DNA from: an uncultured Candidatus Saccharibacteria bacterium
GTDB lineage: Bacteria; Patescibacteriota; Andersenbacteria; UBA10190
Length of the DNA stretch: 64,000 nucleotides
Direction of reading: 5' to 3'
NCBI GenBank assembly: GCA_964610055.1
Contig: CAZSUC010000001.1
Span: forward strand, 588,977 to 652,976
Below the pieces are notes generated by a model. It was not told the DNA's origin and did not search any database. It saw only the letters and a program-made list of their open reading frames with translations. Below are positions 7,494 to 40,167 of the stretch, in pieces. How positions within the stretch are numbered: the first letter of the stretch is position 1; every line of letters starts with the position of its first letter. Both the position numbers and the translations under genes were made by a program.

Positions 7494-8460
7494 TGCCGAC
7501 ACCGCTAGTGGCTGGTATCCTGACCGAGCCTTACAAGAATTTAAACAAGCCTCCTCCCTAAAGCTTGTCACTTCCCCTCACCAAGCAGACCTAATTTGGA
7601 TATTCTCTTACTACTTATCTCTTAATCCAATTTTGTCATGGCCACACCTGCGCCATCTTCTAAACCAACCACCCCTACGACATAAATCTTTAACACACAC
7701 GCCCGTCATTACTACTATTCACCACCTCTCCCCGCAGAAAAAAAATATCTGGCATCCAATCATAACTAACCTGGAACACATCACCGACTATTGGCATACA
7801 GCCAACCCAACAGGGCACGCGACTATTTCCAGCATCAGCTCAAAACCCATTATAGATTTACCTTATTGGATTGATACCAATCTTTTTCAGCCTTTCACGT
7901 CCAGCCAAAAACAAGCTAATCGCCAAAAGTTAAACATCCCCAAAGACCATTTAATCATTGGTAGTTTTCAACGTGACACTGAAGCAGACGGACAGACCCC
8001 CAAGCTGGACAAAGGTCCCGACATCTTCTGCGATATTATCGCTAAAATCCCGCAACCAGTCTTCGTAGTACTCACAGGAACTCGTCGCCAATATGTGGAA
8101 AAACGCCTAAAATCGGATAATATTCCGTATCTTAATGTTGGACATGTGCCCTATCATGATCTTCCCCGCTTATATTCCATCCTTGACTATTATTTAGTCA
8201 CCGCTCGCCTGGAAGGCGGCCCCCAGTCTATTCTTGAAACTATGGCAACCAATACCCCTATCCTTAGCACCTCGGTTGGTATATCCGGCCTCCTGCACTC
8301 CTCCGCTATTTTCTCGCCGGAATCCTTTACCCCTGATATTCTTCGCGCTGCCAACTCACCTCAAGTCCTTGCTCAACATCTAACTACTGCCACGCAATAT
8401 AGCATACAAAACATTATTCCTCAATACGATCAGGCTTTGGCACAGATATGCACAAACTAA
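7450..8460 (+). CDS. Glycosyltransferase (GT4-like C-terminal half)
   Basis: YLVTARLEGGPQSILETMATNTPILSTSVGISGLL resembles the GT4 nucleotide-sugar binding region. The start is uncertain (GTG 7441 or ATG 7450) and lies in a 5'-5' overlap with the divergent gene. Confidence 0.65.
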   Translation: MTIPANSKPIRFFPIADTASGWYPDRALQEFKQASSLKLVTSPHQADLIWIFSYYLSLNPILSWPHLRHLLNQPPLRHKSLTHTPVITTIHHLSPQKKNIWHPIITNLEHITDYWHTANPTGHATISSISSKPIIDLPYWIDTNLFQPFTSSQKQANRQKLNIPKDHLIIGSFQRDTEADGQTPKLDKGPDIFCDIIAKIPQPVFVVLTGTRRQYVEKRLKSDNIPYLNVGHVPYHDLPRLYSILDYYLVTARLEGGPQSILETMATNTPILSTSVGISGLLHSSAIFSPESFTPDILRAANSPQVLAQHLTTATQYSIQNIIPQYDQALAQICTN

Positions 8461-8461
8461 T

Positions 8462-9490
8462 ATGAAAGTCTTCATCTCCTTCCCAATCAAATCAAAGCCT
8501 TACGGCGGCGCTAACCAGTTTCTCAAAGCACTCGCAAAAGAGTTAGAACTCACTGGTCACTTAACTCAAAATCCTGCAACCGCAAGTTTAATTCTCGTGA
8601 ACGCCAACCCCAGTAACTTATTCTTTGGATTTCAACAAGCCTTACGCTTAAAACAAAAGTTCCCTAAAGCCAAAGCCGTTATCCGAATTGATGGTCCCAT
8701 TTCACTTATTCGGAATACCAATAACACTATTGATAAACTAATTTTAAAACTATCTAACCTCTTGGCCGACGGCATCATCTTTCAGTCGCAATGGAGCGCA
8801 AAACATAACAATCTCATCCAGACGGTCACCGCCCCTAACCAAACCGTTATCTACAACTCTCCGGATAATCACATATTTTATCCGCAAACTACCCCAAAGC
8901 CCAGCGTCCCTATCCGCCTAATTGCGACTTCTTGGTCCTCTAATCAAAACAAAGGTTTTAGCTTTTATAGGTACATTGACGAAAACCTTGATTTTAAAAA
9001 ATACCACATGACCTTTGTCGGCAATGCGCCACAAACTTTTAAAAACATCCGCTGTCTTTCCCCCGTCTCATCTCACCAACTCGCCCACTTACTTAGACAA
9101 AGCGACATCTATATTACCGCTTCACGTAACGACCCCTGTTCTAACGCTCTGATTGAAGCCCTGGCGTGTGGACTTCCCGTCGTTGCCATGAATAGCGGCG
9201 GACACCCTGAGCTAGTCCAAAACAACGGGGAACTATTCCAAAACGCAACCGAATTGATCCAGAAGCTAGAAACAATCATATCTAATTATTCTCGTTACAC
9301 AAATCGGCTTCCCCGCTTTTCAATTAGTCAGACTGCCACCGAATACGTCCAATTTTTTAGCCAGGTTTCAGACACCCGCTCCACTCCCATCTCTATCTGG
9401 AAAACTTATCGTTACTGGACAATATGGGGAAAATACTATTTCACTACCATGGTTTCCGGAATCATCTCCCGAATCTTCCCTAAAATATAG
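8462..9490 (+). CDS. Glycosyltransferase family 4-like
   Basis: Contains ITASRNDPCSNALIEALACGLPVVAMNSGGHPELVQNNGELF. 342 aa. Confidence 0.75.
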   Translation: MKVFISFPIKSKPYGGANQFLKALAKELELTGHLTQNPATASLILVNANPSNLFFGFQQALRLKQKFPKAKAVIRIDGPISLIRNTNNTIDKLILKLSNLLADGIIFQSQWSAKHNNLIQTVTAPNQTVIYNSPDNHIFYPQTTPKPSVPIRLIATSWSSNQNKGFSFYRYIDENLDFKKYHMTFVGNAPQTFKNIRCLSPVSSHQLAHLLRQSDIYITASRNDPCSNALIEALACGLPVVAMNSGGHPELVQNNGELFQNATELIQKLETIISNYSRYTNRLPRFSISQTATEYVQFFSQVSDTRSTPISIWKTYRYWTIWGKYYFTTMVSGIISRIFPKI

Positions 9491-16550: not shown

Positions 16551-17762
16551 ATGTCAAATAATATAGGTTTTGTCATATCCCGTTCTGCCGAATTAAAAGT
16601 ATATGCCCCCCTTGCCAGCGCTGCTTTAGCCAAAGGATATAAAGTTTTTTTAATATGCGGCCCAAACCCTGAACAATCATGGCCCAATACACCTACATAC
16701 AAACCCATTAAAGCCAACTTAAGGTTTCAGGATGACCAGCACATTCAATATATTCCGTATTCTGACTACAAAGATGCACACCACCAAATTATAACGCACC
16801 GGATTAAAAATATTTTTACCCTTGGCTTCCGTCCCGGTTCTTTGACTTATTATCTTGGCCACCAAATCTCACAAAAATTCCGTCTCTACGGGCTCCAGTC
16901 TTATGCCGATTACTTGGCTACTCCTCCGGAATTAATGCAAAAGTTTGACGCTTTTTTCACTTTCAGCCCAATCATGAAAGACATATATCAAAAAGTTTAT
17001 CCCAAAGCGTCTATGGCAAGTCTAAACAGCGTCTTTCAAGCTGTCGGCAATCCCATGACTGAAAACATTAACACACTTCAACAACACTCTGCCGATATCC
17101 GCTCAAAATACAGCCTGCCTAGCAACAAAAAGATTGTATTATTGTTATCCTTTAACATCGGTAACGAATTATGGAGAAAATATGTTTTTGGTTCACCCAA
17201 CTGGCTATATTCTCTTGCTGCCCTAATCTACTTTCACGAATACTCTAAGATACCTTTAATCTGGTCTCAACCCAAGCTCAAGCGTATCCTAGCCGAACTT
17301 AAGCAATGGACCCGACAAAACAACGCGATTCTTGTCACCAAAACCCGGTCCAAACAAAACGAGCCCTCTTACCTCAAACGCACAACTGATTATCTTATTA
17401 CAGACACCGGATCTTGGCTGCCCTATCCTGCCCTGGAACTCATGTCTATTTCTGATTTGGTGGTCAGCTTTAACAGCACCGGAATCATTGAATCATCCGC
17501 ACTAGGCAAATTCATGCTTTCTATAAAATTAACTGACGATAAAACCACGTCAATTGGAGACACGTTTACTCGTACAATTTATCGCCCCTCAAACGTTAGT
17601 CAAACTGTGGACTACTATGACTTTCAAAAATTTCTATCATCACACGCCTTATCAGACTTTACCAAACAATCATCTGAATTTGCGCTCTATAACAACACCT
17701 TTATTAGCAAAAATACCACCCCCGCATCGCATCAAATTCTTGATTACTTAAATCAACATTAA
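16551..17762 (+). CDS. GT-B-fold protein, possible PseG/SpsG-like nucleotide-sugar hydrolase or transferase
   Basis: 403 aa. The C-terminal LMSISDLVVSFNSTGIIESSALGKFMLSI resembles the MurG/PseG-type (Glyco_tran_28_C-like) segment. It is divergent from pseB. The functional call is weak. Confidence 0.5.
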   Translation: MSNNIGFVISRSAELKVYAPLASAALAKGYKVFLICGPNPEQSWPNTPTYKPIKANLRFQDDQHIQYIPYSDYKDAHHQIITHRIKNIFTLGFRPGSLTYYLGHQISQKFRLYGLQSYADYLATPPELMQKFDAFFTFSPIMKDIYQKVYPKASMASLNSVFQAVGNPMTENINTLQQHSADIRSKYSLPSNKKIVLLLSFNIGNELWRKYVFGSPNWLYSLAALIYFHEYSKIPLIWSQPKLKRILAELKQWTRQNNAILVTKTRSKQNEPSYLKRTTDYLITDTGSWLPYPALELMSISDLVVSFNSTGIIESSALGKFMLSIKLTDDKTTSIGDTFTRTIYRPSNVSQTVDYYDFQKFLSSHALSDFTKQSSEFALYNNTFISKNTTPASHQILDYLNQH

Positions 17763-31659: not shown

Positions 31660-33930
31660 ATGTCGCCTTTTTCTCGTCCTTACTTTGCCTTATTAATTGT
31701 TAGCGCTTTAGCGCTCTGGCCGCTTTTTTTCGGCCGTTTTTACGGTATTGGCGATACACGCTCCGTTTATATTCCCATCGAGCATTTTTTTGCTGAGCAA
31801 CAACGGCACTTTAATTTACCGGCCTGGATGCCAGACACTGCTTGGGGTTTTCCGGTAATTGCTTCTGCTCAAATCGGTTTCTTTTATCCGCCTCTTTTAC
31901 TGACACGCTTCTTACCTATCTTTATTTACCTGCCGTTATTACTCTGGCTCCACATCTTTTTTCTCGGTATCGGCGCCTATCGTTTGGCCCGAACCCTAAA
32001 TATTAGTCAAAACGGCGCCCTGATTACCGCCCTATCCATTGCTCTTAACGCCTTTCTTTGGCAGCACTTAACCCACCTAAACATTATTTTTGCTTTGGCT
32101 TGGTTTCCTTGGCAATTACTCGCCGCTCATTACTTAGCCAGATCACATCGACCTAATTTCAAACAATTTGCCGGCTTAGTTTTCACTTTAGGCCTCCCGT
32201 TTTTAGCTGGCCAACTTCAAGTTCCTTTTCTCACCGCTCTTTTCTCTACCATTTATTATTTCGTTTCTTTACCCAAAAAGCCTTTCCCCTCTCGACATCT
32301 CCTCATTTTCCTCGGCGCAACTCTTTTGACTATTACTCTCACCGCCGTCCAAACATTTCCCACCCTAGAGCTCACATTCCTTTCCAGCCGTGGATCAACT
32401 AATGAATTTTCTTTGGAACGAGCTAATCAACATAGTTTTCCTATTTATCATCTACCCACCTTACTTTTTCCACGCTTTTTCGGCTCAGATAATACTTATT
32501 GGGGGAAACGTATTGAAATAGAATACGGCTTTTTCTTCGGCGTCATTCCGCTATGCCTCAGCTTTATTGCTATATTCAACAAATCACGTCGTTACCGTTT
32601 CTGGATTATCAGCGGCTTCATAGCTTTTCTGTTAAGCCTGGGCGAATTTTCTCCTTTTCGCTTAGTTGGCTTAGAGCCATCGCTCTGGTACTTTTCTGCT
32701 CCCGCCCGTTGGCTATTCTTCACCGTTTTTTCTGGATCAATCCTTGCTGGTTTTGGTTATGATCTTTTGCCTAATATCTCACCTCGTTACCTGCGCATCC
32801 TTAAATCAACTATTGTAACCATATTAAGCTGCGTCATTTTATATAATCTCGTCCTTTGGCTCTTGCCGGAAAATTTTGCTTCTTATGTTCTAACCTGGTT
32901 GCAATCACAAAATCTCACCGGCGCTCGCGATTCAGCCTATTATTTAGATAAGATTAATTCCTTACTCTCCTCTGCAAAACACACGGGCTTATCACTTGCT
33001 TCGCCATATACTTACATCACTCTCATTCCTTTGCTCGCCATTCCATGGCTCTTCCAAAAACATCACTCGTGGCTTATTCCTCTCACAGCTATTGAACTCA
33101 TCTTAATTGCCAGTACGGCCAATCCAAGTGTTACTTGGTCCAATATTCTAACTCCTCCTGCCAGCATCTCTGCCCTTCCTCAAAGTGTTACCAGCGATCA
33201 CGCTCGCATCATTTCAATCTCAGCTCCCGGCGATACAGGGCTTTGGCTAACTAACCCTGAAACCCGTGCCGATACCGCTCGTCGCGAACAATATCGTCAA
33301 CAACTCGAACCACTCACTCACTCACTTTTTAATCTTGCCGGTTCTCAATGGCCCGCCTCGCTGGATCTACAATCTCAGGCACATACTTTAGAAAATTTAC
33401 TCGAATCACGCCAAGATCAACTATACATTGATTCTGACAAAGCCGCTGCTCTCAATATCGGTGCTGCCTTAATTGCCAACGAAGCTCCCCACACTGTTTC
33501 AGAAGTACTACCCCAAAATATTGCACCGAATATCTTCTTGTATTCCTTCTCTCCTCAACCTCGCGCTTCTCTTTTAACTGAAGACCAAACCGAATTAGCG
33601 CTTCCATACGACAACACTAATCCTAATCACCAAACTTATACCCTCTCATCATCTACTCCCGCGACCCTTATTATTCGCGACACCTGGTACCCTGGTTGGC
33701 AAGCCACACTTGACGACCAACCCGTTAACATTGATACCTATAACAATATTTTCCGTTCTGTTTCGGTTCCCTCCGGATCACATACCGTTTCTTTCACCTA
33801 TCATCCTACTTGGCTTTATTACGGTCTAGCTATTTCGCTTACCACTCTTGGTTTTCTAATATTTGTGCTGATGTACAATAATCATATCTACACTGTTCCC
33901 TTTATTTTAAGGAGGAAGACCATTGGCTGA
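31660..33930 (+). CDS. YfhO-family polytopic membrane protein
   Basis: 756 aa. Contains NLPAWMPDTAWGFPVIASAQIGFFYP, and the C-terminal RDTWYPGWQATLDDQPVNIDTYNNIFRSVSVPSGSHTVSFTYHP plus a terminal TM. Confidence 0.75.
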   Translation: MSPFSRPYFALLIVSALALWPLFFGRFYGIGDTRSVYIPIEHFFAEQQRHFNLPAWMPDTAWGFPVIASAQIGFFYPPLLLTRFLPIFIYLPLLLWLHIFFLGIGAYRLARTLNISQNGALITALSIALNAFLWQHLTHLNIIFALAWFPWQLLAAHYLARSHRPNFKQFAGLVFTLGLPFLAGQLQVPFLTALFSTIYYFVSLPKKPFPSRHLLIFLGATLLTITLTAVQTFPTLELTFLSSRGSTNEFSLERANQHSFPIYHLPTLLFPRFFGSDNTYWGKRIEIEYGFFFGVIPLCLSFIAIFNKSRRYRFWIISGFIAFLLSLGEFSPFRLVGLEPSLWYFSAPARWLFFTVFSGSILAGFGYDLLPNISPRYLRILKSTIVTILSCVILYNLVLWLLPENFASYVLTWLQSQNLTGARDSAYYLDKINSLLSSAKHTGLSLASPYTYITLIPLLAIPWLFQKHHSWLIPLTAIELILIASTANPSVTWSNILTPPASISALPQSVTSDHARIISISAPGDTGLWLTNPETRADTARREQYRQQLEPLTHSLFNLAGSQWPASLDLQSQAHTLENLLESRQDQLYIDSDKAAALNIGAALIANEAPHTVSEVLPQNIAPNIFLYSFSPQPRASLLTEDQTELALPYDNTNPNHQTYTLSSSTPATLIIRDTWYPGWQATLDDQPVNIDTYNNIFRSVSVPSGSHTVSFTYHPTWLYYGLAISLTTLGFLIFVLMYNNHIYTVPFILRRKTIG

Positions 33931-34126
33931 TGACAAAGACCAAGACGAACGAAACCGACGACTTACAGAAGCCCTTGCGCCGTTAGGGCGAGGCGAGCTT
34001 CCTGACGGTACACCCATTGACCTAGCCGCCATCTCTGAACGTGCAAATCGGAAAGCCTGGATTTTTGCGCGCCGGCTTAGAGATAGCGCAGTACGTGACA
34101 ACCGCCGATACAAGGGTCAACACTAG
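33923..34126 (+). CDS. Small hypothetical protein (67 aa), paralog of 34285-34476
   Basis: TTG start lies 7 nt after GGAGG (33911-33915). It shares ERNRRLTEALAPL...IDLAAISERA with the second copy, and a perfect terminator follows. Confidence 0.5.
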   Translation: MADDKDQDERNRRLTEALAPLGRGELPDGTPIDLAAISERANRKAWIFARRLRDSAVRDNRRYKGQH

Positions 34127-34141
34127 CCCACCTCCTTACGT

Positions 34142-34169
34142 CCCGTGCCACATCGGCACGGGCTTTTTT
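34142..34169 (+). terminator. Rho-independent terminator
   Basis: CCCGTGCC-acatc-GGCACGGG forms a perfect 8-bp stem, followed by C and T6. Confidence 0.7.
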
Positions 34170-34284
34170 ACAATTTATTCCGTCCCAGTCTCTCATACCG
34201 GTATAAAATTTCTACTTTTGTAGATCGATATAGTATATTAACTTTATCTTTTGTTCCCTTCACTTTTAGTAGGAGGATAAACCG

Positions 34285-34476
34285 TTGGATAATGAAAACG
34301 AACGAAACCGACAACTTACCGTGGCTCTCAATCCATTAAGGACAGGTCTATCATTATCTGACCTCTCCGCAATCGCTGACCATGCCACAGACGACGCCAT
34401 GTCGCATGCCAAAGCAGTTCGTTCAGGAACAGCAAGGACCAGAGCTAAACACAGGTTAGGCCCATACAAAGGCTGA
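34285..34476 (+). CDS. Small hypothetical protein (63 aa), paralog of 33923-34126
   Basis: TTG start lies 8 nt after GGAGG (34272-34276). It carries ERNRQLTVALNPL...LSDLSAIADHA. A 20-nt stretch, gaacgaaaccgacNacttac, is shared between the two copies (33947-33966 and 34300-34319). Confidence 0.5.
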   Translation: MDNENERNRQLTVALNPLRTGLSLSDLSAIADHATDDAMSHAKAVRSGTARTRAKHRLGPYKG

Positions 34477-34509
34477 CCTTTGCGCACCATCACAGTCAGG
34501 AGAATTTTC

Positions 34510-34788
34510 ATGGCAGCAGAAACTTATCATTTCATCCTTTTAGGAAGCCCTCTCTCACGAACAGACTTCCTTAATCCGCTTAAAAGGCGGATACAATTCG
34601 ACATGGGCAAGACAGCTCTCGCTCAAGTCCCAGGCATACGTTTCGGTACCGAATTTCCTATTGCTTGCGCCGTAACCATCACCTGCCCGCGAGAATCACT
34701 GCCAGAACTCCACCGGATCATGACTGAACACAGTTTTCAAGAAGGTAGCCAGGAGATTTCAATCAAAACAGCCAGAGAAATCGCCTAA
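34510..34788 (+). CDS. Hypothetical protein (92 aa)
   Basis: ATG 34510 lies 7 nt after AGGAG (34498-34502). No recognisable motif. A terminator follows. Confidence 0.5.
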   Translation: MAAETYHFILLGSPLSRTDFLNPLKRRIQFDMGKTALAQVPGIRFGTEFPIACAVTITCPRESLPELHRIMTEHSFQEGSQEISIKTAREIA

Positions 34789-34814
34789 CACACCTCCTCC
34801 TTCATCATCCTACT

Positions 34815-34841
34815 CCACCAAGCCAGTCTTGGTGGATTTTT
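34815..34841 (+). terminator. Rho-independent terminator of the small-gene unit
   Basis: CCACCAAG-ccagt-CTTGGTGG forms a perfect 8-bp stem followed by ATTTTT. The U-tract overlaps the stop codon of the convergent ATPase gene. Confidence 0.65.
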
Positions 34842-36135
34842 ATATCCACATCCTATCAATCAATTCTCGCGGTTGTCCGTACCGTAATCGATTTACCGCC
34901 TGCACCTCTACCTTCCCTATAGCCGTTTCTAAACTTAACGGCGGCAAACTCTGCCCCCGAAATGCTCGGTACGTAATTCCGGCCTGAGTCAGACGGATAA
35001 AAAAGTGATATGGCGGCAAGTCCTGAAAATCCTCCACTTGAATCGCCTGCCCCTTATCCCACGATGTTTGCTGAAAGGCCGGCAGTAACGCTTCCGCATC
35101 ATTTGCCCCTATTTGAAAAGCCACCAACGTTCCTACATTACCCAACACCGCCTCTCGCACCTCGTCAGTTAATTGCGCCACATACTGATTAGTTAAATGC
35201 ACAGCTAATCCGTACTTGCGCGCTTCCGACAACATAGAAATGAATGTTTCCGTCATCACATTCTGAAATTCATCGACGTATAAATAAAAGGGAACCCTGT
35301 CTTCGACCGGCATATCGGCACGACGCATTATCGCCGCCTGTAACTTTGCCATCAAAATCAATCCCAACATATATGAATTTAATTCTCCCAGTCTTCCTTT
35401 AGACAAATTCACAATCAAAATTTTGCCATGATTCACAATCTCATCAAACGCCAAAGCATTGCGCTTCTGACCGATGATATTGCGCATCGTCGTATTTGTC
35501 ATAAAGCGACCAAACTTGGAAGTAAAATAATTCAACATTTCCGAGCGATGAAACTGCGCGGTTTTTGCCATCTGCTCTTCCCAAAATGACAATACGACCC
35601 GATCTCGCACATGGCGACGTTTTTCTTGCTCAAATTTTTCATCCGTAAATAAGCGCGGAATCTCAATCAAAGTTCCGCCCGCCGGATCGGCCATAACTGT
35701 TAAAGCCGCATTTCGCATCCAGTGTTCAAACTGCGGCCCAATAATTCCCTGCTGATCCGGATCAAATAGTTTATAAAATATCTGAATCGCCTCGGCCACC
35801 AAAAAATCTTTCTCACTTTCAGTTTTACCATCCAATAAGTTCAAGCCTAATGGCCATTCCGTATCAGCCGGATCAAACAACACTACATCATCCAACCGCT
35901 CCGCCGGAATATTATTTAACAGCCAATCGCACACTTCTCCATGCGGATCAACAAAACAACACCCCGCCCCAGCCTGAATATCCTGCAAAATCATATTTTG
36001 ATACAAAGTCGATTTACCCGTCCCAGTTTTTCCAATGCAATACATATGTCGCATCCGATCTTGCGGTGCTGTTTGAATACTGCGCATTTGATTGCGAAAT
36101 TCAGCGTGTCCAATTACATTCATTCTTTCTGTCAT
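34840..36135 (-). CDS. Soluble FtsK/HerA-superfamily P-loop ATPase, TraD/VirD4 (type IV coupling protein)-like
   Basis: Walker A CIGKTGTGKST, then FVDPHGE, Walker B FYLYVDEFQ, and the C-terminal LSEARKYGLAVHLTNQYVAQL...LGNVGTLVAFQIGANDAE (TraG/TraD C-terminal-type pattern). No TM segment is visible. Confidence 0.8.
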   Translation of the reverse strand: MTERMNVIGHAEFRNQMRSIQTAPQDRMRHMYCIGKTGTGKSTLYQNMILQDIQAGAGCCFVDPHGEVCDWLLNNIPAERLDDVVLFDPADTEWPLGLNLLDGKTESEKDFLVAEAIQIFYKLFDPDQQGIIGPQFEHWMRNAALTVMADPAGGTLIEIPRLFTDEKFEQEKRRHVRDRVVLSFWEEQMAKTAQFHRSEMLNYFTSKFGRFMTNTTMRNIIGQKRNALAFDEIVNHGKILIVNLSKGRLGELNSYMLGLILMAKLQAAIMRRADMPVEDRVPFYLYVDEFQNVMTETFISMLSEARKYGLAVHLTNQYVAQLTDEVREAVLGNVGTLVAFQIGANDAEALLPAFQQTSWDKGQAIQVEDFQDLPPYHFFIRLTQAGITYRAFRGQSLPPLSLETAIGKVEVQAVNRLRYGQPRELIDRMWI

Positions 36136-36136
36136 T

Positions 36137-36361
36137 TCAGCTCCTTTCTACCATTGTAAAATAATTAGCCGGAATAGGACGTGGCGGCAATCCCGGTCGC
36201 ATCACCATAACTACTTTTGTTTCCACCTTAGCTTCAGACGTAATCTTCACTGTCCGCCGCCATGCTTCCAAACGGTTTTTAATTACTCTCTGCGTTTCTA
36301 TTGGCAGCCAATGCTTAATTCGCTCATACTCCTCTTCTACTTTGTGTAATTTTGCTATCAT
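36137..36361 (-). CDS. Small hypothetical protein (74 aa)
   Basis: ATG 36361 overlaps the upstream TGA (ATGA), and its own stop lies 1 nt before the next ATG. This translationally coupled position is the main evidence. Confidence 0.55.
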   Translation of the reverse strand: MIAKLHKVEEEYERIKHWLPIETQRVIKNRLEAWRRTVKITSEAKVETKVVMVMRPGLPPRPIPANYFTMVERS

Positions 36362-38043
36362 ATTGTTTCTTTCATCATCCATTGCCCGATCGCTGATTCC
36401 GCCGTTTGTTCTAGCCATCTTTTCAACGGCCTAACCCCGAACCGCGGATCATATTTCTGCTCAATGTGTTGTCTAATCATATTATCCGACATCGACAAAT
36501 TAACTCCCAAATGACTGAATCGTCTTTCAATCTTCTGTAGTTCCAACCGTCCGATCATCACTAAAGTTTCCGGCGCAAACGGAGCAAAAACAGCAATTCC
36601 CTCAAACCGATTCAAAAACTCCCACCGAAAATATTTAGTCAGCAATGGCAACATCCGCCGACTTAACCATTCCGCACTTGTTACATCCTCTCCTGCCTGC
36701 CAATCAGTCACAATTTCACTTATCCCTATATTCGAAGTCGCCACAATCACGGTTTTCCGGAAATCGATTGTTCGTCCTTGCCCATCAGTTAAACGCCCAT
36801 CTTCTAACACTTGTAAAAAAATATCAAACACCGCTTTATCGGCTTTTTCAATTTCATCCAATAAAACTAACGAATATGGCCTTTGTTGTACTGGATTAGT
36901 TAATTGACCACCACTCTCATACCCAACATAACCAGGTGGCGCACCAATTAAACGCTGTACATTATGTGCTTCCTGGTATTCCGACATATCAACCCTTACC
37001 ATCGCCTTATCTCCGCCGTACAATTCTCGCGCCAACACACGCGCCACCTCTGTTTTACCGACTCCGGATGGACCTAAAAACAAAAATGAACCCAATGGTC
37101 GATCCGGATTCTTCAATCCTAACCATGACCTTTCGATTACTTTTGTTACCATATTTACTGCTTGATCCTGACCAATGACCTGCGCTGCTAATCTACCCCC
37201 CAACCCAGCAATGGCCTTCCTATCTCGCGTTTGAACTTTTATTGTCGACATCCCCAACTTATCACTCAAAACCCGCTGCGCATCTTCATATGCCACAATC
37301 CTCCGCCCCTGCACCACCGCCTCCGCTCCAATGTCATCTAAAAACCTAATTGCCCGTTCGGGCATCGCTAAGCTCGCTGGTAACTGACTCGCTAAATCAT
37401 AGATTGCTTCCGGCATATTAGCAGCCATCTTAATATTATGTTTGAATCCAAAATAAGCGGCGCGATCTCTTAAAATTTCCACCACATCTGCTTTTCCTAA
37501 TTCATCTAATCGAATCCATTCGAACTCACGTACATACTTCGGATAATTTTCCTTAAATTTTATTTCTCCTTCTAACGACAACGCTAACACTAATCTATGC
37601 CTCTGTTTCTGCCAAAACTTACTCCACACATCCGCCATCTGCGCTGTATTCATCACATACTCCAACAGCACCTCTGCCTTATCAATCACCAAAATACAGG
37701 CTGGTAGCGCTCCTAGTGCTTCTCCGTAAAGCCGTAATTTCGCGGCCGGATCATGCGCTCGATTCATTTTTTCCTGCCACCATTTCAAATCTAACTCCAG
37801 AATTGGTGTTTGAATTATCCCCTGCAAACTGCCTTTGACCGCCGCCTGCGCCAACCCTCTCAACAACGCTGTTTTGCCTACTCCTTCTCCTCCTGTCACC
37901 ACCACGTTATTCATTTGATCACGCTCAAATACTCGCGCCATCAAACTCAACTCTCGCTCCCGACCTCTCACTGGCCACTGACGAACTTGAGTAGCCTCTC
38001 GCACTAAATCAATTATATGTATTGTTTCTAATCGCTCAGGCAT
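36358..38043 (-). CDS. Clp/Hsp100-family double-AAA+ ATPase, short form (no N-domain, no M-domain, degenerate NBD1)
   Basis: NBD2 is intact: GPSGVGKT, LLDEIEKA, GAPPGYVGYESGGQLT, VIVATSN, FLNRFEGIAVFAPF and GVRPLKRWL. NBD1 keeps Walker A GGEGVGKT, but Walker B reads ILVIDKAE (E replaced by K) and the KYRGEFE-type pore loop is absent. 561 aa. Confidence 0.85.
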   Translation of the reverse strand: MPERLETIHIIDLVREATQVRQWPVRGRERELSLMARVFERDQMNNVVVTGGEGVGKTALLRGLAQAAVKGSLQGIIQTPILELDLKWWQEKMNRAHDPAAKLRLYGEALGALPACILVIDKAEVLLEYVMNTAQMADVWSKFWQKQRHRLVLALSLEGEIKFKENYPKYVREFEWIRLDELGKADVVEILRDRAAYFGFKHNIKMAANMPEAIYDLASQLPASLAMPERAIRFLDDIGAEAVVQGRRIVAYEDAQRVLSDKLGMSTIKVQTRDRKAIAGLGGRLAAQVIGQDQAVNMVTKVIERSWLGLKNPDRPLGSFLFLGPSGVGKTEVARVLARELYGGDKAMVRVDMSEYQEAHNVQRLIGAPPGYVGYESGGQLTNPVQQRPYSLVLLDEIEKADKAVFDIFLQVLEDGRLTDGQGRTIDFRKTVIVATSNIGISEIVTDWQAGEDVTSAEWLSRRMLPLLTKYFRWEFLNRFEGIAVFAPFAPETLVMIGRLELQKIERRFSHLGVNLSMSDNMIRQHIEQKYDPRFGVRPLKRWLEQTAESAIGQWMMKETI

Positions 38044-38044
38044 A

Positions 38045-39895
38045 TTAGACCATCATTGTCCGATTAACAGTTGTGCCACCCGTAATCTGACTGGATCTTA
38101 TCGTTCCTTCCTCTTCATCTTCTGTTCCTATAATTATCCCGCCACGATGACGCGCTTCTGCCGCTAACTCAATCTCTGTCCCTCTTTGCTTAATCTGACC
38201 AACATAATTATCTAAATCTACTCGCCAACCCGGCTTCTCTCTTTCATTTCTCCAATTTTCTCTTTCCGCCTCTGCTCTCCATTCATATCCAACCGGACCA
38301 TCTGTCACTTGCTCTAAACTATCCGGCTTCGTTTTCGCCTCATAAAAACGATACCTAACTGCATCCCCATCTCGCTCCACTACCGTTACATCCAACACTT
38401 CGCCTTTTACCGTACGCTCTCCCGAAAAATACTGCTGTTCTCTGTTTACTGCGCCTCTAATCACTTTTTCTAGCTCTCCTCGCTCTTCCACCGGCCACAA
38501 ATCCATCACACTCTTTTCTATTTGCTCCGGCATCAACGTTAAAGCGACTTTCTCTTCCATATCTAACTCAACATCAATACCCTGAATTTCCTCTCTTCTT
38601 ACCTCCGCCTTATAAACCGTTTCTACCTTCGGGTACTCTTTCTTTTCCCCAACCTTCACATCTACATTCACATCTACATCTATATTCTCTACATTATTTT
38701 CTCTTCCCTTTTCTAAAATCACTGGTCTTTCAGCTATTTTTTTCTCCTCCGTAATCGCAACTTCAACTCTTTCCTTAACTCTCGTAACGCTTTGCTCCGA
38801 TAAAACCTGGTCGGCTTTCACATCCACCGCTTTCGGCACTAGTCCCGGAAACATCTCCTGTAAACTCACTTCTACTTTCCTAGATTCATTTTTCTGTCCT
38901 AAATCAGTTTGCACTACTTCTGGCATTGAAGCAGCTTCTCTTTCCCCCGCATTTACATACTTTATCTCTATGGCTTCACTCGGCGTATTTTCTATCACCC
39001 GTACCTCTCCTGTCTTCGTCTCACCAGGTTCCTCTTGCTTTAACAACTCCTTACGCAACTCCTCATGATTCCAAACTTCTTCTAGCTGCGGCTCTTCAAC
39101 CTGCCTCTGCTCCACAAACACATCAGAATTAATCGTATTTTCAGATGCTTGTTCTTCTAGTTCTTCTCTTTGATCATCTACTTCCACTCTTTCACCAACC
39201 ATATCCATCGCATTTATATAATTTATCTCAATGCCTTCACTCGACGTATTTTCTATCACTTGCACCTCTTCTTCTCTCACCTCATTGCTTTGCTGTTCTT
39301 GTACCACTACCACTTCTTCTCTAACAAGCTCTTCACTTATCTCATCAACCATACTTTCTGCTTGCGCTTCAATCTCTACTTGTTCTACTTGCGCTTCATC
39401 TTCACTGCCTATCCACTCGTCGCTTTCTTCATTCAAATTAACCGGTACTTCACGAAATTGCACTAACATATATTCTGTTTCTCGTTCTCCCCACTCATTC
39501 ACTTCGTCTTTGACCACCACTGCACAACTTTTAAACTCATGATAAGCCACATATCCACTTTTCGCGCCACATAATGTTTCAAATTGCCCTTCTTCATCCA
39601 TTCCTTCACTACTAATCTCCTGATCATTCCAAAATACCCGTCTCTTACCAGTCGCGTCTTCCCTCACCACGCATTTATATGTCTGCGCCATTTCTAGTCT
39701 TTGCCCTGTCCCTTGCTCTAAATCAACTCGAGCTGATTCTAATCTCATTGTCATTCGCTCATGTTCTTCTGTCTGGCGTTCCTTTTCCGATGCTAATTCT
39801 TCTGCTTGAACCTGTACCTCAGATTCAATCTCTTCAACATCCAACATTTCCTCTAGGCTTTCTTCGGTTTCCGCTATGTTTATACTTTCAGGCAT
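38045..39895 (-). CDS. Hyper-acidic repeat-containing protein (616 aa), function unknown
   Basis: ATG 39895 lies 8 nt after AGGAG. The long central region is Glu/Val/Gln-rich with an internal duplication (EVQVIENTSSEGIEINYINA and EVRVIENTPSEAIEIKYVNA). There is no signal peptide or TM segment. Its stop lies 1 nt before the Clp-like gene's start. Confidence 0.75.
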   Translation of the reverse strand: MPESINIAETEESLEEMLDVEEIESEVQVQAEELASEKERQTEEHERMTMRLESARVDLEQGTGQRLEMAQTYKCVVREDATGKRRVFWNDQEISSEGMDEEGQFETLCGAKSGYVAYHEFKSCAVVVKDEVNEWGERETEYMLVQFREVPVNLNEESDEWIGSEDEAQVEQVEIEAQAESMVDEISEELVREEVVVVQEQQSNEVREEEVQVIENTSSEGIEINYINAMDMVGERVEVDDQREELEEQASENTINSDVFVEQRQVEEPQLEEVWNHEELRKELLKQEEPGETKTGEVRVIENTPSEAIEIKYVNAGEREAASMPEVVQTDLGQKNESRKVEVSLQEMFPGLVPKAVDVKADQVLSEQSVTRVKERVEVAITEEKKIAERPVILEKGRENNVENIDVDVNVDVKVGEKKEYPKVETVYKAEVRREEIQGIDVELDMEEKVALTLMPEQIEKSVMDLWPVEERGELEKVIRGAVNREQQYFSGERTVKGEVLDVTVVERDGDAVRYRFYEAKTKPDSLEQVTDGPVGYEWRAEAERENWRNEREKPGWRVDLDNYVGQIKQRGTEIELAAEARHRGGIIIGTEDEEEGTIRSSQITGGTTVNRTMMV

Positions 39896-40097
39896 ACAAA
39901 AAACTCCTACATGCACAACACGCATGAGGAGAAATCACTAAAAATCCTTATGCGCGTAGGCTCAACAAAGGATTCAGGCACTCTGACTTATGGCTTTTAG
40001 CCCATCACAGTTGCGGCATACCAGCGCCGGATTCTCACCGGCTTTCCCTGATCACACTTTTCAGTGCGCGTGGTGCGAACCACGCCAATCCTCTTTA
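39896..40097 (-). promoter_or_regulatory. Cobalamin riboswitch-like 5' leader (aptamer ~39966-40096, expression platform 39896-39965)
   Basis: The minus-strand RNA reads AUCAGGGAAAGCCGGUGAGAAUCCGGCGCUGGUAUGCCGCAACUGUGA (40005-40050) plus the B12-box-like GCCAUAAGUCAGAGUGCCUG (39975-39994). These are closed by P1 AAGAGGAUU/AAUCCUUU. Downstream, hairpin 39904-39931 (CUCCUCAUGC-guguugu-GCAUGUAGGAG) sequesters the SD and is followed by U6 and then the ATG. Confidence 0.8.
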
Positions 40098-40167
40098 AAA
40101 ATTAATGTGCACTCTTAGCTTACCGCCGTTCCCTTGGCCCCACAATCAGTTTTTTGCACAGGCTCGT

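Follow-up and report, generated by a model that had tools for sequence, protein, structure and literature searches.

Few functional signposts in bacterial genomes are as reliable as cobalamin riboswitches. What lies behind them is almost always a gene for making, importing or bypassing B12, and a B12 riboswitch normally governs the metabolism or transport of B12 or an isozyme that works without it, as in the btuB, metE, nrd and cob/cbi operons (Rfam clan CL00101). Coupling proteins (T4CPs) normally act at a membrane channel, and those with adaptors and regulators include TrwB/VirD4, Cagβ-CagZ and DotL-IcmS/W. Clp/Hsp100 proteins of class I (ClpB, ClpA/ClpC, ClpV) carry two tandem AAA+ modules, and in type VII secretion the FtsK-like ATPase EccC and the AAA+ protein EccA are co-encoded with secreted clients. 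Patescibacteria (CPR) are ultra-small, reduced and mostly host-dependent cells, and their route to cofactors is an open question. They encode thousands of T4CP homologues that have neither a T4SS association nor an assigned role, many of them far from virB4 (PMC12102498).

In the window, by which we mean the whole 64,000-nucleotide stretch of DNA analysed, four minus-strand genes lie behind a cobalamin riboswitch (Table 1). Unlike known cobalamin operons, which serve B12 synthesis, transport or B12-independent isozymes, they encode two ring ATPases, a probably disordered acidic protein and a small protein.

Table 1 Features of the cassette and its leader, with positions counted from the first letter of the window
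Feature	Position	Strand	Basis or remark
GC-rich hairpin	34814..34836	.	just beyond the cassette stop codon
Gene 4, soluble T4CP-like hexameric-type ATPase, 431 aa	34840..36135	-	Pfam, fold
Gene 3, 74 aa, predicted helical, candidate adaptor	36137..36361	-	ORF
Gene 2, short Clp/Hsp100-type double-AAA+ ATPase, 561 aa	36358..38043	-	Pfam AAA_2 7e-58, ClpB_D2-small
Gene 1, hyper-acidic, probably largely disordered, candidate client, 616 aa	38045..39895	-	ORF, ATG behind AGGAG RBS
Intrinsic terminator	39898..39931	-	CUCCUCAUGC / GCAUGUAGGAG, then U6; abuts start codon
Conserved hairpin motif CCUnCGyGCAUAAGG (P13-like)	39945..39960	-	sequence reading
Cobalamin (B12) riboswitch aptamer	39957..40105	-	RF00174, full model, 27.4 bits, E=5e-5

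A four-gene cassette behind a cobalamin riboswitch

A preliminary description of this DNA had proposed an undescribed, translationally coupled operon controlled by a B12 leader. All four genes lie where it had placed them, and a motif and junction scan recovered its junctions (TAA-A-ATG, ATGA and TGA-A-ATG, that is, a 1-nt gap, an overlap and a 1-nt gap). The interval it assigned to the system, 34840-39895, leaves out the leader itself. Its statement that no component has a transmembrane segment or signal peptide agrees with our hydrophobicity scan of the four proteins: the highest Kyte-Doolittle mean over 19 residues was 1.75, reached by the Clp-like protein in its Walker B strand, and no segment was transmembrane-like. 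Downstream of the cassette, the GC-rich hairpin has its T-run on the plus strand and is thus read as a terminator for the convergent small genes; for the cassette it is a weak stop at best. A Pfam search of the ten largest other ORFs in the window returned genes of the envelope and of translation; no B12-dependent enzyme was among them.

We compared the leader with Rfam families RF00174, RF01482 and RF01689. It has no match at gathering score (27.4 vs 31.5 bits) and was found in E-value mode, with core and helices conserved. The aptamer core is that of known cobalamin riboswitches (GGGAA...GGUGAAAAUCC...GCCGCAACUGU...AAGUCAGA..CC), and the minimum-free-energy fold recovers P1, P2 and the core junction. 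A custom model, R1, places the core at 39970-40058 of the window with 73 bits. R1 also matched all four loci that had been kept out of its building, and it gave no match in 66 non-cassette loci with a membrane-anchored T4CP paralogue, about 1.1 Mb in all. Upstream DNA is included in 17 of the 20 cassette loci; the aptamer is present in every one of these 17, at or above the Rfam gathering score in 12, and its core is invariant across them. In the orthologous leaders, a P4-like helix shows compensatory changes in three of its five pairs, with 94.9% of cells paired, and no shuffle reached its observed covariation score. Judged by sequence and covariation, the leader is a cobalamin riboswitch, with cobalamin binding predicted, and the operon does stand behind it as first proposed.

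A neighbourhood survey then showed that the four families and the leader occur together as a fixed cassette in many Patescibacteria. Gene order is identical in 20 loci from several classes, and the flanking genes are unrelated. All ten contig look-ups for short-form T4CP homologues gave the cassette, and about 30 of the best 120 clusters in both the T4CP and the Clp searches agree in the size of their longest contig. Among the surrounding genes are housekeeping ones, for instance those for ribosomal proteins, tRNA synthetases and ligase. No T4SS, VirB4 or relaxase gene was found within the 7-10 kb flanks of ten annotated cassette loci, and no membrane component in any cassette or its flanks. 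Searches with PADLOC and PHROG and of viral and plasmid sequences returned no full match, which sets the cassette apart from known plasmid, phage and defence modules. The literature on cobalamin riboswitches together with Patescibacteria/CPR, or with T4CP/Clp, gave nothing relevant and no published description of the cassette, so the system does appear undescribed. That these genes form a self-contained, Patescibacteria-specific cassette gated by a cobalamin riboswitch is, by itself, highly probable.

Expression platform and direction of the switch

As in known cobalamin-riboswitch operons, the expression platform is of the terminator type, and most orthologous leaders carry a similar hairpin followed by a U-run between aptamer and gene 1. 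In the window, the 3' arm of the terminator holds the AGGAG ribosome-binding site (39904-39908), and the open frame of gene 1 extends to 39925. The loop of the P13-like hairpin, GCAU(A), is complementary to UAUGC in aptamer L5, and the 3' half of this hairpin is the 5' arm of a predicted antiterminator; ViennaRNA pairs CGCGCAUAAGGA with UCCUCAUGCGUG in this region. The hairpin motif and a matching L5 insertion are common to the leaders of the window and of loci L078, L002 and L160, and the window's subgroup of leaders conserves both the complementarity of L5 to the loop and the pairing that forms the antiterminator. Four leaders have the kissing-loop pairing, and since it does not vary among them, covariation lends it no support; it is less evident in the other subgroup.

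We propose that, with B12 bound, the hairpin loop would be held in kissing contact with L5, which would make it unable to act as an antiterminator, and transcription would stop. When B12 is scarce, the antiterminator would form and all four translationally coupled genes would be expressed. The terminator would both end transcription and bury the ribosome-binding site. Thermodynamic folding fits an ON switch as well as an OFF switch, and it can be read as ON because the 3' strand of P1 can pair with the antiterminator arm. We infer that a canonical OFF switch is the likeliest logic.

Two ATPases, an acidic protein and a small protein

Gene 2 shares the two tandem AAA+ modules of class I Clp/Hsp100 proteins and aligns with PDB chains of ClpB, ClpC and ClpA. 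Its NBD2 is intact, with the GYVG pore loop that had been reported: a motif scan found GPSGVGKT, LVLLDE, GYVG and TSN, the orthologue alignment agreed, and the match to the NBD2 of ClpB and ClpC (E ~1e-83) extends to pore loop, sensor motifs and D2-small domain. The label "pseudo-NBD1" holds in part. The Walker A motif is kept (GGEGVGKT), and the Walker B glutamate is gone, with ILVIDK where D-E is expected and ID(K/D/N) at this place among orthologues. Unlike ClpB, ClpA and ClpC, the protein also lacks an N-domain, an M-domain coiled coil and a ClpP-docking tripeptide. Its alignment begins at ClpB residue 172 and ClpA residue 187 without a Clp_N match, and its 561 aa leave no room for an M-domain. 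The tripeptide (I/V)G(F/L) was not found between sensor 1 and the arginine finger, which we take to be the interval where it is expected. Scores reach about one third of the NCBIfam Clp equivalog cut-offs (for ClpB, 391 bits against 1232). Gene 2 would act as a Clp/Hsp100-type unfoldase with NBD2 as the working motor, and ClpP docking would not be possible.

Gene 4 matched Pfam TrwB_AAD_bind and TraG-D_C (PF10412, PF12696) above gathering cut-offs and fell far below those of the NCBIfam TraD and VirD4 models. Its motifs GKTGTGKS and YLYVDE are in place; no change in Walker A or B occurs among 34 orthologues, the catalytic motifs of both ATPases being invariant among their orthologues, and identity across classes is 58-70%. 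An AlphaFold2 model (pLDDT 90.7) clearly has the predicted fold of the soluble domain of TrwB/Cagβ, a nucleotide-binding plus an all-alpha part. The best Foldseek matches were Cagβ (8dol) and TrwBΔN70 (1e9s), both full length (E ~1e-12, TM ~0.63), and HerA was also among the matches; identity to solved T4CPs is only 13-15%. Gene 4 resembles T4CPs with adaptors in its full-length fold and intact Walker motifs, and it resembles T4CP systems in having a small partner and a candidate substrate that bears a C-terminal signal encoded beside it. It differs from T4CPs in having no N-terminal membrane anchor (Walker A begins as early as residue 35, and the maximal Kyte-Doolittle mean over 19 residues is 1.35), no VirB4, T4SS or relaxase gene nearby, and a co-encoded Clp-type unfoldase. 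We consider gene 4 a putative soluble hexameric-type ATPase that would trace back to the coupling protein with which monoderms conjugate.

Gene 1 encodes a protein with 25% D+E and a net charge of -83. It had no match in Pfam, NCBIfam, PHROG or PADLOC, and an exhaustive HMMER search gave one weak relative only. A single-sequence AlphaFold2 model had a mean pLDDT of 37.9 and is uninformative except for disorder. Positional orthologues are all acidic, vary from 544 to 1134 aa and are 13-19% identical in MAFFT alignments, suggesting that the protein is probably a disordered, fast-evolving polyanion. To call it a repeat protein, as had been done, overstates the case: there is a single 23-aa motif in two copies 87 aa apart. 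Its proposed role as substrate or scaffold gained indirect backing on two counts and stands as a candidate. First, ssrA-like -AA tails end 10 of 17 gene 1 orthologues, many with the tail G-h-T/S-L-K/R-x-A-A. The same ending closes 26 of the 750 ORFs in these loci that have 200 aa or more, and nearly all 26 are gene 1 proteins or their counterparts in membrane-T4CP loci; the window's own protein ends in TMMV. Second, where a locus has a membrane-anchored T4CP paralogue, the gene upstream encodes an acidic protein in 32 of 49 cases and an AA-tailed one in 12 of 49. Gene 1 would be the client, with its C-terminal tail as the probable point of engagement.

For gene 3, gene callers prefer a 93-aa form starting at 36418. 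Neither Pfam nor NCBIfam gave a family match. Alignments of 11 and 15 positional orthologues share the C-terminal motif L-(N/P/D)-x-x-(Y/F)-F, and the predicted helical protein would tether its partners through this conserved YF motif. A divergent DUF5663, the small protein beside long-form T4CPs, was rejected as its identity (hhalign probability 0.5%).

Readings of the cassette

The riboswitch, the terminator, the coupling of the genes, the conservation of the cassette and the identities of the domains are established, and nothing in the proteins explains the tie to B12. The cassette stands behind the riboswitch in every case examined, in several classes, without visible B12 chemistry, which makes it very likely that what it does depends on B12 status. 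We propose that the products would form a cytoplasmic, B12-repressed two-motor machine for protein handling, whose purpose would be to respond to B12 starvation. That two motors handle the acidic protein as their client is, taken alone, a tentative claim that falls somewhat short of probable; the full reading, a riboswitch-gated Patescibacteria cassette encoding such a machine, we hold to be about evenly balanced between right and wrong. With this cassette, orphan T4CP-like ATPases acquire a definite set of partners, a candidate client and a regulatory input that can be tested, and B12 supply would be connected to a protein-handling process. Type VII secretion shares the concept of an FtsK/HerA-superfamily ATPase and an AAA+ protein with clients that carry C-terminal signals, as in EccC and EccA; it differs in its ATPase families, and the cassette has no membrane components and no WXG- or PE/PPE-like substrates. 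A more specific version is conceivable, though we lean against it: B12 starvation in episymbiotic Patescibacteria would turn on a device in which unfoldase and coupling ATPase are stacked. A polyanionic disordered protein would be threaded through it, for instance to be exported towards the host or to remodel the cell for host acquisition. If true, cofactor supply would be a direct trigger of symbiont behaviour, and the cassette an unrecognised kind of riboswitch-gated machine.

Alternatively, gene 4 could dock on a Patescibacteria VirB4-type T4SS, perhaps in a mixed ring with its membrane-anchored paralogue, and with the Clp-like unfoldase export an acidic effector or a corrinoid scavenger into the host or the outside at low B12. 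T4SS substrates typically bear C-terminal signals. The T4CP fold of gene 4 fits such coupling, as do its long-form relatives, which belong to true conjugation clusters that also encode PrgI, a relaxase, NlpC/P60 and a VirB4-like ATPase, and the acidic AA-tailed proteins that also precede the membrane-anchored paralogues in Berkelbacteria. Many Patescibacteria T4CP homologues lie far from virB4 with no role assigned (PMC12102498). However, the four proteins are devoid of transmembrane segments and signal peptides, the flanks of the annotated loci are free of T4SS genes, and HMMER searches, orthologue alignment and AlphaFold2 revealed no conserved fold or motif in gene 1 for binding corrinoid or cobalt. 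Moreover, in one tested Saccharibacterium t4cp is dispensable for epibiotic growth, whereas other T4SS genes are essential. We regard secretion coupling as unlikely.

DNA handling linked to dNTP supply is improbable. Here the gene 4 ring would translocate DNA, the acidic protein would be a DNA mimic that occupies or regulates the ring, and the Clp-like ATPase would remove it. The system would come on once a B12-dependent ribonucleotide reductase fails for want of B12 and DNA has to be scavenged or managed by the cell. That class II ribonucleotide reductase is tied to B12 is well-established biochemistry, relatives of the T4CP, HerA and FtsK kinds translocate DNA (TrwB and HerA are among the Foldseek matches), and gene 1 is strongly polyanionic. 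Yet no gene for a nuclease, a relaxase, DNA binding or competence is part of the cassette, a scan of the ten largest window ORFs showed no ribonucleotide reductase, and the proposal would rest wholly on analogy.

Still less credible is a mobile or anti-phage module in which the riboswitch would be incidental. PADLOC matched mad8, HerA, PDC-M37B and DolB at the domain level and phrog_5156 matched the T4CP domain, but these matches span nothing beyond generic ATPase domains, and of the systems concerned (MADS, Dodola, PDC-M37, HerA systems) the partner genes are missing. Flanking genes do differ from genome to genome, and one locus adjoins a recombinase and a Shedu-like gene; against this stand the housekeeping surroundings, a conservation of gene 4 across classes that looks like housekeeping constraint, and the invariable riboswitch. 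A phage module is out on domain content, with three distant matches in 2.9 million viral contigs, and the phage and plasmid matches are long forms at most 34% identical. We dismiss as the least probable reading that the acidic protein binds cobalt or corrinoid beside chelatase-like ATPases (CobS/CobT, BchI/BchD): B12 control, the acidic segments of CobT and BchD and a CxxCx4-5CxxC motif at the N-terminus of some gene 1 orthologues speak for it, but that motif is missing from the window's protein and many others, gene 1 has no conserved domain, and the four proteins match no MoxR-type AAA+, vWA domain (in those chelatases, a partner with an acidic linker) or CobN.

A metagenome scan with the Clp-like alignment returned 80 loci, only canonical ClpB and ClpC and none with a T4CP-like gene, because the patterns used were universal NBD2 motifs. 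Patescibacteria hold more than 90 clusters of Clp-like proteins of about 550 aa, and membrane-anchored gene 4 paralogues of 800-1040 aa occur in other Patescibacteria.

Gene layout and occurrence of the cassette

The four minus-strand open reading frames lie where the preliminary description had placed them, and the junctions read from the sequence, TAA-A-ATG, ATGA and TGA-A-ATG, make its spacing of a 1-nt gap, a 4-nt overlap and a 1-nt gap exact. It had also reported no transmembrane segments, in agreement with our finding no hydrophobic stretch of transmembrane quality in any of the four proteins.

Coordinates of cassette genes and leader elements in the window
Feature	Position	Strand	Remark
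Gene 1, acidic protein	38045-39895	-	616 aa
Gene 2, Clp-like ATPase	36358-38043	-	561 aa
Gene 3, small protein	36137-36361	-	74 aa
Gene 4, T4CP-like ATPase	34840-36135	-	431 aa
Cobalamin riboswitch aptamer (predicted)	39957-40105	-	Rfam E-value mode, 27.4 bits
Conserved small hairpin	39945-39960	-	CCUACGCGCAUAAGG; downstream of aptamer
Terminator (predicted)	39898-39931	-	CUCCUCAUGC/GCAUGUAGGAG + six U; downstream of aptamer

On the plus strand (33923-34788), a pair of small paralogous ORFs encoding 67 and 63 aa, with the motifs ...ERNRRLTEAL... and ...ERNRQLTVAL..., and a 102-aa ORF behind them converge with the cassette; they are terminated by a T-run hairpin at 34814-34836. The window (1-64000) shows an unusually strong strand asymmetry, with an overall GC skew, (G-C)/(G+C), of -0.315 versus about -0.16 to +0.15 at cassette loci from related organisms, and its sign is identical for genes in both orientations (-0.15 to -0.52 per gene).

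Homologue searches returned thousands of relatives of gene 4, which encodes an ATPase resembling type IV coupling proteins (T4CP). The best 120 are all about 400-470 aa long with 57-70% identity, and the named sources among them are all Patescibacteria (Portnoy-, Colwell-, Doudna- and Pacebacteria, Paceibacterota). Scanning one genome per species with gene 4 yielded 75 loci, all from Patescibacteria. The T4CP-like gene is directly preceded by a Clp-like gene at the nine closest (59-63% identity); at the other 66, the gene 4-like domain forms the C-terminal portion of a protein of 800-1040 aa whose N-terminus has a transmembrane helix. These long proteins mostly come as two paralogues separated by 2-4 kb, and no Clp gene accompanies them. 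Gene order was identical in 10/10 contig look-ups of short-form (soluble) T4CP homologues: a 587-843-aa protein without a Pfam match, a Clp-like protein of 552-558 aa, a small protein of 68-110 aa and a T4CP-like protein of 419-437 aa. The upstream intergenic region of these ten loci spans 270-420 nt, and about 800 nt in L170 (L-numbers denote loci of other Patescibacteria). The four families recur together elsewhere in Patescibacteria. The Clp-like short form is also abundant in Patescibacteria, and about 30 of the best 120 Clp-like clusters match T4CP clusters in the size of their longest contig. The flanking genes (ribosomal proteins, tRNA synthetases, DNA ligase, pilus genes, envelope genes) differ every time, which marks the cassette as a self-contained unit within chromosomal surroundings.

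At L168, a serine recombinase, a Shedu-like SduA_C gene and a Peptidase_S24 gene flank the cassette (1-2100 and 8407-9114), which hints at a defence or mobile island in that genome only.

Predicted cobalamin riboswitch and direction of switching

At gathering thresholds, Rfam gave no match anywhere in the 64-kb window. In E-value mode, the intergenic leader matched the cobalamin riboswitch model end to end (E=5e-5), with a score of 27.4 bits that lies below the gathering threshold of 31.5. The leader has the conserved aptamer core, and its P1, P2 and junction were reproduced by the minimum-free-energy fold. An AGGAG ribosome-binding site lies inside the 3' arm of the terminator, which ends 2 nt upstream of the gene 1 ATG.

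At other cassette loci (L004, L006, L007, L008, L009, L077, L160, L161, L162, L167, L168 and L170), an aptamer of the cobalamin clan directly upstream of gene 1 reached the Rfam gathering score. A custom covariance model, R1, built on the aptamer cores of 13 leaders, recovered the core in 13/13 training leaders and detected it in 4/4 later, independent loci (E 7.5e-7 or better), with no match in the 66 loci carrying membrane-anchored T4CP paralogues (1.36 Mb searched). Three of the five pairs in the P4-like helix carry compensatory changes, 94.9% of cells are paired, and shuffled and slid controls all scored far short of it. On the strength of these matches, their absence from the 66 loci and this covariation, the aptamer is present in 17/17 cassette leaders and specific to the cassette architecture; the riboswitch-like B12 leader first noticed in the window is upheld. 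A hairpin followed by a U-run shortly precedes the start codon in most cassette leaders, which points to transcription termination as their probable common expression platform.

In a subgroup comprising the window, L078, L002 and L160, loop L5 of the aptamer contains an extra GUAUGC and the hairpin loop a complementary GCAU(A), and the 3' half of the hairpin also base-pairs with the terminator's 5' arm (CGCGCAUAAGGA/UCCUCAUGCGUG). In kissing-loop cobalamin riboswitches, the ligand steadies a loop-loop contact, so that no antiterminator arises and the terminator forms. The subgroup layout has the same architecture, from which we infer that it is probably a B12-OFF switch, in which bound B12 would hold the contact between L5 and the hairpin loop, block the antiterminator and let the terminator form. 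This loop pairing is invariant in the leaders that have it and therefore carries no covariation support. An ON switch, with the 3' strand of P1 capturing the antiterminator arm, is also allowed, being compatible with plain thermodynamic folding of the leader; the kissing-loop architecture argues for OFF.

Doudnabacteria-type loci (L004, L006, L007, L009, L077, L161) have a PaaX_M-like gene (161-173 aa) immediately upstream of the riboswitch, and an OmpR-type response regulator lies immediately downstream of the cassette in L008 and most of the same loci. These neighbours may reflect lineage synteny or an extended regulon. The Patescibacteria contig of L077 also contains a group I intron (17227-17532, Rfam 72.8 bits).

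The two ATPases and their partner proteins

Over its full length, the predicted fold of gene 4 (pLDDT 90.7) matches those of the soluble domains of the coupling proteins Cagβ and TrwB (E about 1e-12, TM about 0.63) at 13-15% identity, with HerA and VirB4 ranking lower, in line with its initial reading as a soluble ATPase of coupling-protein type. Unlike type IV coupling proteins, it lacks their defining membrane anchor, since just 34 residues precede the P-loop. Across 34 orthologues, neither Walker A nor Walker B varies. Relatives of the long form are found in genuine conjugation clusters of monoderm type, including one on an Embleya plasmid with PrgI, a VirB4-like ATPase, a relaxase and NlpC/P60, and this fixes the ancestry of gene 4 as a coupling protein of monoderm conjugation systems.

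Gene 2 encodes a two-module Hsp100 that reaches about one third of the equivalog cut-offs of ClpB and ClpA. The preliminary description had proposed a pseudo-NBD1 and an intact NBD2, the two ATPase modules: NBD2 is indeed canonical (Walker A and B, GYVG, sensor 1, D2-small domain), and NBD1 has lost DE to ID(K/D/N) but retains its P-loop. The N-domain, the M-domain and the (I/V)G(F/L) ClpP-docking tripeptide are all missing from gene 2. Both ATPases are identified with catalytic motifs intact, and they are constantly paired with a polyanionic, probably disordered protein and a small protein that bears a conserved motif.

The small protein, gene 3, is predicted to be helical, with a C-terminal motif, L-(N/P/D)-x-x-(Y/F)-F, conserved in 15 orthologues. 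Assignment to DUF5663 was rejected, the two being unrelated by direct comparison.

Gene 1, initially called an acidic repeat protein, is acidic (25% Asp+Glu, net charge -83), but its internal repetition is a single 23-aa motif in two copies 87 aa apart. It had no family match, and one weak relative emerged when 1.8 billion representatives were searched exhaustively; single-sequence AlphaFold2 reached a pLDDT of 37.9. Its positional orthologues are 13-19% identical yet always acidic (net charges -28 to -119). A C-terminal -AA, often inside G-h-(T/S)-L-(K/R)-x-A-A, occurs in 10/17 orthologues and the one remote homologue; the window's protein ends in TMMV. These loci contain 750 ORFs of 200 aa or more, of which 26 end in -AA, nearly all of the 26 being gene 1 proteins or counterparts adjoining membrane-anchored T4CP paralogues. 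Where the paralogue is membrane-anchored, the gene upstream encodes an acidic protein at 32/49 loci and an AA-tailed one at 12/49. An -AA carboxy terminus resembles the ssrA degron, which is recognised by Clp pores. Since the tail is also found without a Clp gene, it may be read by the T4CP-like ATPase instead of the Clp-like one.

Doudnabacteria-type gene 1 proteins (L009 5814-5900, L008, L004, L006, L007) have a Cys-rich N-terminus (e.g. CEGCDGANCGRC, CGPDCDHFDHC), a motif absent from the window's protein.

Possible function and relation to known systems

These results establish a conserved cassette gated by a predicted cobalamin riboswitch. We infer that its four proteins would work together in the cytoplasm as a single protein-handling machine that has gene 1 as client and is made under B12 limitation. 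Export via a type IV secretion system (T4SS) is possible; against it, neither the cassettes nor their flanks encode a membrane or T4SS component. There is little or no support for the cassette acting in DNA handling linked to dNTP supply, in defence or as a mobile element, or in the manner of a chelatase.

In Patescibacteria, the majority of T4CP homologues are encoded far from virB4 and were possibly exapted (PMC12102498); that study gives counts of the homologues and says nothing of a riboswitch, a Clp partner or the cassette. Literature searches for cobalamin riboswitches with Patescibacteria/CPR, or with T4CP and Clp, found nothing. Neither the combination nor its control by B12 appears to have been described. 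Each cassette part belongs to a known family yet departs from that family in defining features. We give only a small chance to the cassette being a B12-triggered machine of a new kind that matters for symbiont-host biology.

Berkelbacteria-type loci (L010-L075) encode a pair of membrane-anchored T4CP-like paralogues, about 845 and 1040 aa long. L018 (2986-16212), the one locus of this type examined in full, also has genes for an acidic AA-tailed protein, a DUF5663 protein, one of 168 aa and one with sigma70_r4 + HARE-HTH; VirB4 was absent from the 13 kb examined. A DUF5663 homologue occurs in nine of the surveyed loci of this type, and the acidic upstream gene in 32/49. Together these features suggest a second uncharacterised cluster built around T4CP-like proteins.
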